Shown here: positions 48,670-57,575 of the stretch, piece by piece | How the letters are laid out: the number at the start of each line of letters is the position of its first letter | How positions within the stretch are numbered: position 1 is the stretch's first letter | NCBI RefSeq assembly: GCF_056712565.1 | Contig: NZ_CM160072.1 | Strand: one strand, 5' to 3' | Length of the DNA: 64,000 nt | Program-made: the position numbers and the translations under genes | The notes under the pieces: generated by a model | Database searches by the model: none | What the model saw: only the letters and a program-made list of their open reading frames with translations | Told to the model about the DNA's origin: nothing

Positions 48670-49065
48670 ATGTGTGAAGGATGTGTTGAAAAACCACTCT
48701 ATTTGTTAATCGCCGAATGGATGATGGCTGAAAACCGGTGGGTGATAGCAAGAGAGATCTCTATTCATTTCGATATTGAACACAGCAAGGCGGTTAATAC
48801 CCTGACTTATATTCTGTCGGAAGTCACAGAAATAAGCTGCGAAGTTAAGATGATCCCTAATAAGCTGGAAGGGCGGGGATGCCAGTGCCAGCGACTGGTA
48901 AAAGTGGTTGATATCGATGAGCAAATTTACGCGCGCCTGCGCAATAACAGCCGGGATAAATTAGTCGGCGTAAGAAAGACGCCGCGTATTCCTGCCGTTC
49001 CGCTCACGGAACTTAACCGCGAGCAGAAGTGGCAGATGATGTTGTCAAAGAGTATGCGTCGTTAA
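48670..49065 (+). CDS. caiF: Carnitine operon transcriptional activator CaiF
   Basis: 131-aa protein MCEGCVEKPLYLLIAEWMMAENRWVIAREIS...; start set at the internal Met. Confidence 0.9.
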   Translation: MCEGCVEKPLYLLIAEWMMAENRWVIAREISIHFDIEHSKAVNTLTYILSEVTEISCEVKMIPNKLEGRGCQCQRLVKVVDIDEQIYARLRNNSRDKLVGVRKTPRIPAVPLTELNREQKWQMMLSKSMRR

Positions 49066-54817: not shown

Positions 54818-56335
<1,518 letters not shown>

Positions 56336-56471
56336 TTAATTCCACTGTGAAAACGAACATTTATTTTGCGTTCCCGTTTGTTTTATTTTTGTTAACATTT
56401 AATATAATTATTATTAACCTCGTGGACGCGTTAATGGCTAACTCATAATGGGTATTCAATAAGCTGCATTC

Positions 56472-56487
56472 TGTGATTGTTATCACA
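56472..56487. promoter_or_regulatory. CRP binding site in the divergent cai/fix control region
   Basis: TGTGA-ttgtta-TCACA, a near-perfect CRP consensus. Confidence 0.7.
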
Positions 56488-56579
56488 TTTTTGTTTCGGG
56501 TGAATAGAGGGCATTTTTTCGTTAATTTTGATTATTAATCAGTTTGTTATGTTATGTTGTGAGTAAAAAAATAGCATCT

Positions 56580-56716
56580 GACTTTCAATATTGGTGATCC
56601 ATAAAACAATATTGAAAATTTCTTTTTGCTACGCCATGTTTTCAATATTGGTGAGGAGCTTAACAATATTGAAAGTTGGATTTATCTGCGTGTGACATTT
56701 TCAATATTGGTGATTA
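56580..56716. promoter_or_regulatory. Array of five CAATATTG-core repeats (candidate CaiF activator sites)
   Basis: TTTCAATATTGGTGA three times (cores at 56586, 56643, 56702) alternating with AACAATATTGAAA twice (cores at 56607, 56664). Confidence 0.55.
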
Positions 56717-56804
56717 AAGTTTTATTTCCAAATTAAAGGGCGTGATATCTGTAATTAACACCACCGATATGAACGACGTTTCCTTCATGATTTCTGGAGA
56801 TGCA

Positions 56805-57575
56805 ATGAAGATTATTACTTGCTATAAGTGCGTGCCTGATGAACAGGATATTGCGGTCAATAATGCTGATGGTTCGTTAGACTTCAGCAAAGCCGATGCC
56901 AAAATAAGCCAATACGATCTCAACGCTATTGAAGCGGCTTGCCAGCTAAAGCAACAGGCAGCAGAGGCGCAGGTGACGGCCTTAAGTGTGGGCGGTAAAG
57001 CCCTGACCAACGCCAAAGGGCGTAAAGATGTGCTATCGCGCGGTCCGGATGAACTGATTGTGGTGATTGATGACCAGTTCGAGCAGGCACTGCCGCAACA
57101 AACGGCGAGCGTACTGGCTGCAGCCGCTCAGAAAGCAGGCTTTGATTTGATCCTCTGTGGCGATGGTTCTTCCGACCTTTATGCCCAGCAGGTTGGTTTG
57201 CTGGTAGGCGAAATCCTTAATATTCCGGCAGTTAACGGCGTCAGCAAAATTATCTCCCTGACTGCAGATACCCTCACCGTTGAGCGCGAACTGGAAGATG
57301 AAACAGAAACCTTAAGCATTCCGCTGCCTGCGGTTGTTGCTGTTTCCACTGATATCAACTCCCCACAAATTCCTTCGATGAAAGCCATTCTCGGCGCGGC
57401 GAAAAAGCCAGTCCAGGTATGGTCGGCGGCGGATATCGGTTTTAACGCAGAGGCAGCCTGGTCAGAACAACAGGTTGCCGCGCCGAAACAGCGCGAGCGT
57501 CAGCGCATCGTGATTGAAGGCGACGGCGAAGAACAGATCGCCGCATTTGCTGAAAATCTTCGCAAAGTCATTTAA
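56805..57575 (+). CDS. fixA: Electron transfer flavoprotein beta-subunit homologue FixA
   Basis: 256-aa protein [27 protein letters not shown]...; start set at the internal ATG. Confidence 0.93.

Follow-up and report, generated by a model that had tools for sequence, protein, structure and literature searches.

The window, a 64,000-nucleotide stretch of contig NZ_CM160072.1 (RefSeq assembly GCF_056712565.1), was found to contain caiT, fixA and caiF in a gene order that agrees with that of MG1655 (Table 1). The caiT-fixA intergenic region was 100% identical to that of E. coli HS13-1 and was present in 5391 of 5426 complete E. coli genomes. Direct reading and a pattern search located five copies of the core CAATATTG in this region, at positions 56586, 56607, 56643, 56664 and 56702, giving core-to-core spacings of 21, 36, 21 and 38 bp along the array, exactly as reported in the initial annotation. 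The repeat search placed TTTCAATATTGGTGA at 56583, 56640 and 56699 and AACAATATTGAAA at 56605 and 56662, in agreement with the alternation of three copies of the first type with two of the second described there, and the span given there, 56578-56716, takes in all five copies. The array is flanked by a perfect CRP core (TGTGATTGTTATCACA, 56472-56487) and by the fixA start codon (ATG at 56805), so that its earlier placement between the CRP site and fixA was also correct.

The core was strongly enriched. Eight CAATATTG cores were present in the window compared with 1.20 expected, a number reached by none of 100 shuffles. All five exact matches to the 11-mer TTTCAATATTG in the window fell within the array stretch, and 11 matches were obtained in the window when up to one mismatch was allowed, compared with 1.75 expected. 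The repeat finder picked out TTTCAATATTGGTGA(T/G) in three copies, at intervals of 57 and 59 bp, as well as the inverted repeat TTTCAATATTG/CAATATTGAAA, whose arms are separated by 13 nt. A one-mismatch half-site, TTTCGATATTG, was also seen within the caiF coding sequence (48768-48778), where it is most likely a chance match.

Table 1. Features in and around the caiT-fixA control region, with positions numbered from the first nucleotide of the window.
Feature	Position	Strand	Description
caiF (activator gene)	about 48670-49065	plus	tblastn with K-12 CaiF, 98.5% identity over 131 amino acids
caiT	54818-56332	minus	504-amino-acid ORF, identical to K-12 CaiT; heads the operon running leftward
Strong CRP (or FNR) site TGTGATTGTTATCACA of the cai promoter	56472-56487		0 mismatches
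CaiF operator F1 (copies 1 and 2)	56583-56617	plus	TTTCAATATTG-N13-CAATATTGAAA, perfect 11-nt inverted repeat
Weak CRP-like site GGTGATCCATAAAACA in the F1 spacer	56593-56608		GGTGA-N6-AAACA, 3 mismatches
CaiF operator F2 (copies 3 and 4)	56640-56674	plus	TTTCAATATTG-N13-CAATATTGAAA, inverted repeat
Weak CRP-like site GGTGAGGAGCTTAACA in the F2 spacer	56650-56665		GGTGA-N6-TAACA, 2 mismatches
Predicted fixA promoter, GTGACA (56692-56697), N17, TAAAGT (56715-56720)	56692-56720	plus	promoter-like match
Copy 5, orphan half-site TTTCAATATTGGTGA	56699-56713	plus	no N13 partner
Conserved block GT[T/A]TTATTt	56719-56728	plus	1.1-2.0 bits per position, ungapped 20-genus alignment
Conserved downstream block TGnTAnnTnTATT (here TGATATCTGTAAT)	56743-56755	plus	1.2-1.7 bits at defined positions
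fixA	56805-57575	plus	ORF, 99.6% identical to K-12 FixA; first gene of the rightward operon

The published CaiF operators F1 and F2 have the sequence 5'-TTTCAATATTG-N13-CAATATTGAAA-3' (PMC12083890 and PMC3680233, quoting Buchet et al. 1999). These secondary sources report that both were protected by purified CaiF in footprints and credit activation by CaiF to them. In the window, the perfect 11-bp inverted repeat with its N13 interval was formed by copies 1 and 2 and again by copies 3 and 4, in the control region between caiT and fixA; caiF is encoded in the same genome, and all three genes are within the window. By both locus and sequence, these two pairs are F1 and F2 and are therefore already known.

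Copy 5 does not form this inverted repeat. It is identical to copy 1 over 16 nt, and the position 13 nt downstream, where a partner would be expected, reads TATTTCCAAAT, with only 4 of 11 matches to the right arm. Its left-arm sequence is the same as that of F1 and F2, including the GGTGA extension that is common to copies 1, 3 and 5 and absent from the right arms, but it has no right arm, it lies inside the predicted core promoter and it is not among the CaiF sites in the accessible literature. PMC3680233 and PMC12083890 describe no CaiF sites other than F1 and F2, and a search of the accessible literature for high-throughput CaiF binding data and start-site names returned nothing useful. The GGTGA extension may be part of the CaiF target or a CRP half-site; as a complete CRP site, copy 5 was rejected, having four mismatches to TGTGA-N6-TCACA and no CRP right half. 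The attribution of the whole array to CaiF in the initial annotation is thus upheld for copies 1 to 4, which carry the published F1/F2 sequence, while copy 5 falls outside the sites named in the accessible literature. Its remark that five copies are more than two dyads need was well founded, copy 5 being the unpaired one.

Within E. coli, the array was almost invariant. The 158-bp array was present at full length in 5362 of the 5426 complete genomes, and 2 of the 5390 matching genomes fell below 95% identity. The initial annotation had proposed that repeat number be compared across strains, and no variation in copy number was seen in this survey; all five copies were likewise invariant in six divergent E. 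coli strains. The segment between the CRP site and F1 (approximately 56460-56560) exists in two sharply different haplotypes within the species, which, along a length of about 100 bp, disagree at roughly 30% of positions. The flanks and all five repeats are identical between these haplotypes, and both keep the perfect CRP half-sites.

For comparison across genera, a single CaiT scan of species-representative genomes yielded 80 loci, from which the caiT-fixA intergenic regions were extracted and oriented like the window. The comparison set comprised 56 Enterobacterales intergenic regions from 21 genera. Bit scores were taken from an ungapped alignment of one representative per genus, covering 20 genera that included Hafnia, Edwardsiella, Budvicia, Leminorella, Limnobaculum, Proteus, Providencia and a Serratia isolate. 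The promoter-proximal 14-mer TTCAATATTGGTGA, which in copy 5 spans 56700-56713, was found to be exact in 50 of the 56 regions, to carry one or two mismatches in five and to be lost in one (Entomohabitans). In the alignment it scored 1.7 to 2.0 bits at every position, compared with 0 to 1.1 bits in the 45 nt upstream, and it was followed at a fixed distance of about 5 to 6 nt, without gaps, by the block GT[T/A]TTATT. The start of the 11-mer was usually 104 to 109 nt ahead of the fixA ATG in the Enterobacteriaceae and Morganellaceae. In the natural variant Entomohabitans teleogrylli, the promoter-proximal copy survives as a degenerate TTCAGCGACGTCGGGTGA; a single dyad and the GTTTTTATTT block are kept, and the leader carries an extra insertion of approximately 66 nt.

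The occurrence of the motif was associated with that of caiF. Matches to the 14-mer with one mismatch or none were confined, across 1.35 Mb of loci, to the caiT-fixA region, apart from one chance match in a Shewanella locus. It was absent from the intergenic regions of Shewanella and Ferrimonas and from the fetched Campylobacter-type loci, and caiF was not found in the fetched flanks of any of these three groups. Most of the loci bearing the motif have a caiF homologue; caiF was not found within the fetched flank for the two Salmonella representatives, Budvicia and Serratia H1w. In Salmonella enterica subsp. arizonae and diarizonae, the five copies are intact and there is no caiF homologue within 8 kb downstream of caiT, the expected place of caiE/caiF being occupied by a 629-amino-acid ORF with a Tat-like signal sequence.

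Upstream dyads differed in number from genus to genus. There was none in Hafnia, Edwardsiella, Serratia H1w, Leminorella and Limnobaculum, one in six genera such as Yokenella and Trabulsiella, two in the clade of E. coli, Citrobacter and Salmonella, and three in Proteus. The orphan half-site was the only CaiF-type element of the intergenic region in five genera, and in Providencia a perfect orphan is kept while the dyads are decaying. The geometry of the dyads was regular, with the 21-bp core-to-core distance found in 86 of the 90 forward/reverse core pairs counted across species and the period of the forward copies mostly 59 bp (range, 55 to 61 bp). In Proteus, with its three dyads and the orphan, this period is exactly 59 bp over the four forward copies, and Budvicia aquatica lacks dyads and carries a pair of complete promoter-type modules at a distance of 27 bp. 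Since the orphan persists while the number of dyads varies from zero to three, it is the constant element of the region, which suggests that copy 5 has a role of its own beside the promoter. This orphan half-site, strongly conserved and embedded in the predicted promoter, is undescribed in the accessible literature. A cooperative array of five sites, along the lines hinted at in the initial annotation, is not suggested by these data: one unpaired copy lies in the predicted promoter and is constant across genera, next to dyads that come and go.

The match GTGACA-N17-TAAAGT was the only promoter-like one on the plus strand of the intergenic region, and copy 5 fills its 17-bp spacer. An alternative -10 hexamer, TTTTAT, is present at 56720-56725, within the conserved block GT[T/A]TTATTt, and would reduce the spacer to 16 bp; copy 5 would sit between the predicted -35 and -10 with either hexamer. 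According to the RegulonDB paper (PMC3531196), fixAp bears a CRP pair placed like that of acsP2, with the proximal site at -69.5. Setting the CRP-like site nested in F2 at -69.5 would put the fixA start near 56727. This site was the second-best TGTGA-N6-TCACA match of the intergenic region, and the centre of the corresponding site nested in F1 is 57 bp away, so that a start at 56727 places the two at -69.5 and -126.5. For the cai promoter, a site at -41.5 is cited in PMC3680233, and applying this distance to the perfect CRP core gives a predicted cai start near 56438. Together, starts at 56727 and about 56438 reconcile the literature positions of -69.5 and -41.5. They would lie 289 bp apart, the same distance between the cai and fix starts that the 1999 work of Buchet is said to have given.

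With the start at 56727, the 14-mer would span about -27 to -14, nearly the entire spacer. In the Hafniaceae and Budviciaceae, the conserved block reads TATTAT, which matches the -10 consensus at five of six positions, 6 nt past the 14-mer. The arrangement of the CRP-like sequences at -69.5 and -126.5 is similar to that of acsP2, a class III promoter with synergistic CRP sites at -69.5 and about -122.5, but unlike those of acsP2, the fixA sites are weak (two to three mismatches) and nested in the operators of a second activator. As they are nested exactly in the 13-bp spacers of F1 and F2, the 35-bp footprints would be common to CaiF and CRP. Proteus is among the genera that preserve the pattern GGTGA-N6-T(A/G)(A/G)CA.

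Downstream of the predicted promoter, the TGnTAnnTnTATT block was found at a fixed, ungapped spacing from the 14-mer in the 20 genera, reading AATCATGGTATTTCTATTG in the distant genera (Hafniaceae and Budviciaceae). This block may represent either an element resembling an extended -10 or an operator within early transcribed DNA; neither Rfam nor the comparison with distant genera revealed a conserved ORF or RNA family behind it. With no stop in between, a GTG at 56742 shares the reading frame of fixA and could extend the N terminus by 21 codons (277-amino-acid ORF). A leader peptide or FixA extension was rejected, as the frame is not conserved, with a stop in Citrobacter, a four-codon ORF in RIT691 and breaks in other genera, and the distant genera have no conserved leader ORF. 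An RNA element was also rejected, the Rfam search giving a lone spurious match below threshold and the array lying upstream of both predicted starts, as was a conserved RNA structure in the long leaders of the Hafniaceae and Budviciaceae, where conservation was limited to the first ~57 bp.

CaiF was assigned to Pfam family PF07180 (CaiF_GrlA) with 28.5 bits against a cut-off of 25, and its sole PDB match was GrlA (4KT5 chain C, E value of 0.0035). Residues Y11, N43, Y47 and R75, implicated in DNA binding by alanine scanning (PMC12083890), were invariant in the 20 genera, with overall identity down to about 50%, and this is consistent with an unchanged DNA target. GrlA is described as activating the LEE1 P1 promoter by binding the 18-bp spacer between its -35 and -10 hexamers (PMC10877973 and PMC4856446, citing Islam et al. 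2011). We checked the sequence of this promoter in O157:H7, which reads TTGACA, TTTAATGATAATGTATTT, TACACA. The two activators thus share a Pfam family, and the target of GrlA, like the predicted position of copy 5, is located between the hexamers. They differ in that the LEE1 spacer is a suboptimal 18 bp, compared with 17 bp (or 16 bp) at fixA, and in that no upstream dyads have been reported for GrlA, unlike CaiF at fixA. A recognition sequence shared with the GrlA target was rejected, since the best match was 8 of 14 bases and was equalled by 94% of shuffles. The analogy with GrlA is one of position only. The members of the MerR family (MerR, CueR and SoxR) also act between -35 and -10, as proposed at fixA, but they are structurally unrelated dimers that bind a complete dyad in spacers of 19 to 20 bp, whereas the fixA spacer is of normal length and contains one half-site. 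As the fixA spacer, at 17 bp or 16 bp, is not overlong (18 to 20 bp), the spacer-shortening logic of MerR and GrlA is not directly transferable.

Taken together, the explanation we favor is that copy 5 is a third, unpaired CaiF element in the fixA core promoter with a positive effect, F1 and F2 being the published operators; we give this a rough probability of 45%. Of the possible readers of copy 5, CaiF is the most economical, because the bases of copy 5 are identical to those of the footprinted half-sites and the motif tracks caiF, and the predicted location between the hexamers suggests that it acts within the core promoter. The layout of the region, the match of copies 1 to 4 to F1 and F2, the conservation of copy 5 in a fixed register with the -10 block and its occurrence together with caiF are established; that CaiF binds copy 5, with a positive effect and in contact with polymerase, is what we infer. 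F1 and F2, together with cAMP-CRP, serve to activate both divergent promoters, cai and fix. In the proposed mechanism, a single CaiF subunit would bind copy 5 weakly when alone. RNA polymerase would take the place of the missing right arm or partner half-site, and CaiF and polymerase would stabilize one another, leading to activation from within the promoter as reported for GrlA. The upstream dyads would add cooperativity, synergy with CRP and reach to the distant cai promoter. Several points count against this explanation. The accessible papers name just two CaiF sites, and if the original footprint probe included copy 5, CaiF alone apparently left it unprotected. Proteins bound between the hexamers are more often repressors, the fixA spacer is not overlong, the LEE1 P1 spacer has no significant similarity to the 14-mer, and caiF was missing from the fetched flanks of the two Salmonella representatives, Budvicia and Serratia H1w. 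The start is a predicted one, and the second conserved block, TGnTA (56743-56747), allows another promoter assignment.

A stronger form of the same idea is that CaiF originally responded to the single promoter-embedded element TTCAATATTGGTGA and needs no other, acting there between the hexamers in the manner of GrlA, with the F1/F2-type dyads (zero to three) being lineage-specific additions that bring cooperativity and widen control to the cai promoter. In that case, one CaiF subunit is probably paired with polymerase instead of with a second half-site. We put this forward tentatively and regard it as somewhat doubtful.

A protein bound between -35 and -10 represses more often than it activates, and an unlikely alternative is that copy 5 does bind CaiF, as a low-affinity core-promoter site, but acts negatively, with activation coming from F1 and F2 only. 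Such a site could cap or delay fix transcription at high CaiF levels, or hold the promoter closed without effector. The position is the usual one for repression by occlusion, and the accessible literature gives activation to F1 and F2. A purely negative role is nevertheless hard to square with the five genera in which the orphan is the sole CaiF-type element near a dedicated activator gene. Furthermore, the fixed register relative to the -10 fits a stereospecific contact with polymerase better than plain occlusion, and the homologue GrlA activates from a spacer.

The TGnTA block raises the further possibility, which we judge to be slightly less likely still, that copy 5 is an activator half-site of the ordinary upstream kind. 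In that case the block at 56743-56751 would be the actual -10, with a start near 56758 and copy 5 near -52, where activators commonly bind. TGnTA does resemble an extended -10 and keeps a fixed spacing in 20 genera, but it lacks a T at -7 in every lineage, and a start at 56758 would move the CRP-like sites to -100.5 and -157.5, at odds with the acsP2-like pair (-69.5) of RegulonDB. It is mainly the missing -7 T and the contradiction with the RegulonDB CRP positions that make this assignment the less likely one; the TATTAT found 6 nt past the 14-mer in distant genera also argues against it.

It is improbable that copy 5 is conserved for a reason unconnected with CaiF, such as a core-promoter feature read by polymerase or a site for another protein, its likeness to F1 and F2 then reflecting common descent. 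The restriction of the GGTGA extension to copies 1, 3 and 5, and its absence from the right arms, could indicate that it belongs to a factor such as CRP. On the other hand, 2 bits per position across several families is not normal for spacer sequence, 11 of the bases are identical to footprinted CaiF half-sites, the motif follows caiF phylogenetically, and copy 5 is a poor CRP match. Lastly, the spacing of the forward copies every 57 to 59 bp, exactly 59 bp over four copies in Proteus, might suggest a leftover tandem duplication with a functionless, truncated last unit, but this is very improbable, as the linkers were no more alike than shuffled controls (p = 0.06 to 0.3) and Tandem Repeats Finder reported no array, which argues that the periodicity is kept by selection on site positions, and the unit taken to be truncated is conserved more widely than any other part, a pattern that argues against a functionless relic.

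Copy 5 adds a new putative site to the known CaiF system. CaiF is used as a biosensor for carnitine and crotonobetaine and in strain engineering, where current designs weigh F1 and F2 only. Should proximal activation take place at copy 5, about 60 bp could suffice for a minimal sensor promoter, and output should be tuned more directly by mutations in copy 5 than by altering the dyads. If copy 5 is instead inert or repressive, the finding amounts to the known CaiF operators plus one extra site. If activation from the spacer is true, it would provide a common and testable activation mechanism for the small CaiF/GrlA family, including a master virulence activator of EHEC and EPEC, and should TTCAATATTGGTGA prove to be the ancestral element, this mode of activation would be shared by the family.
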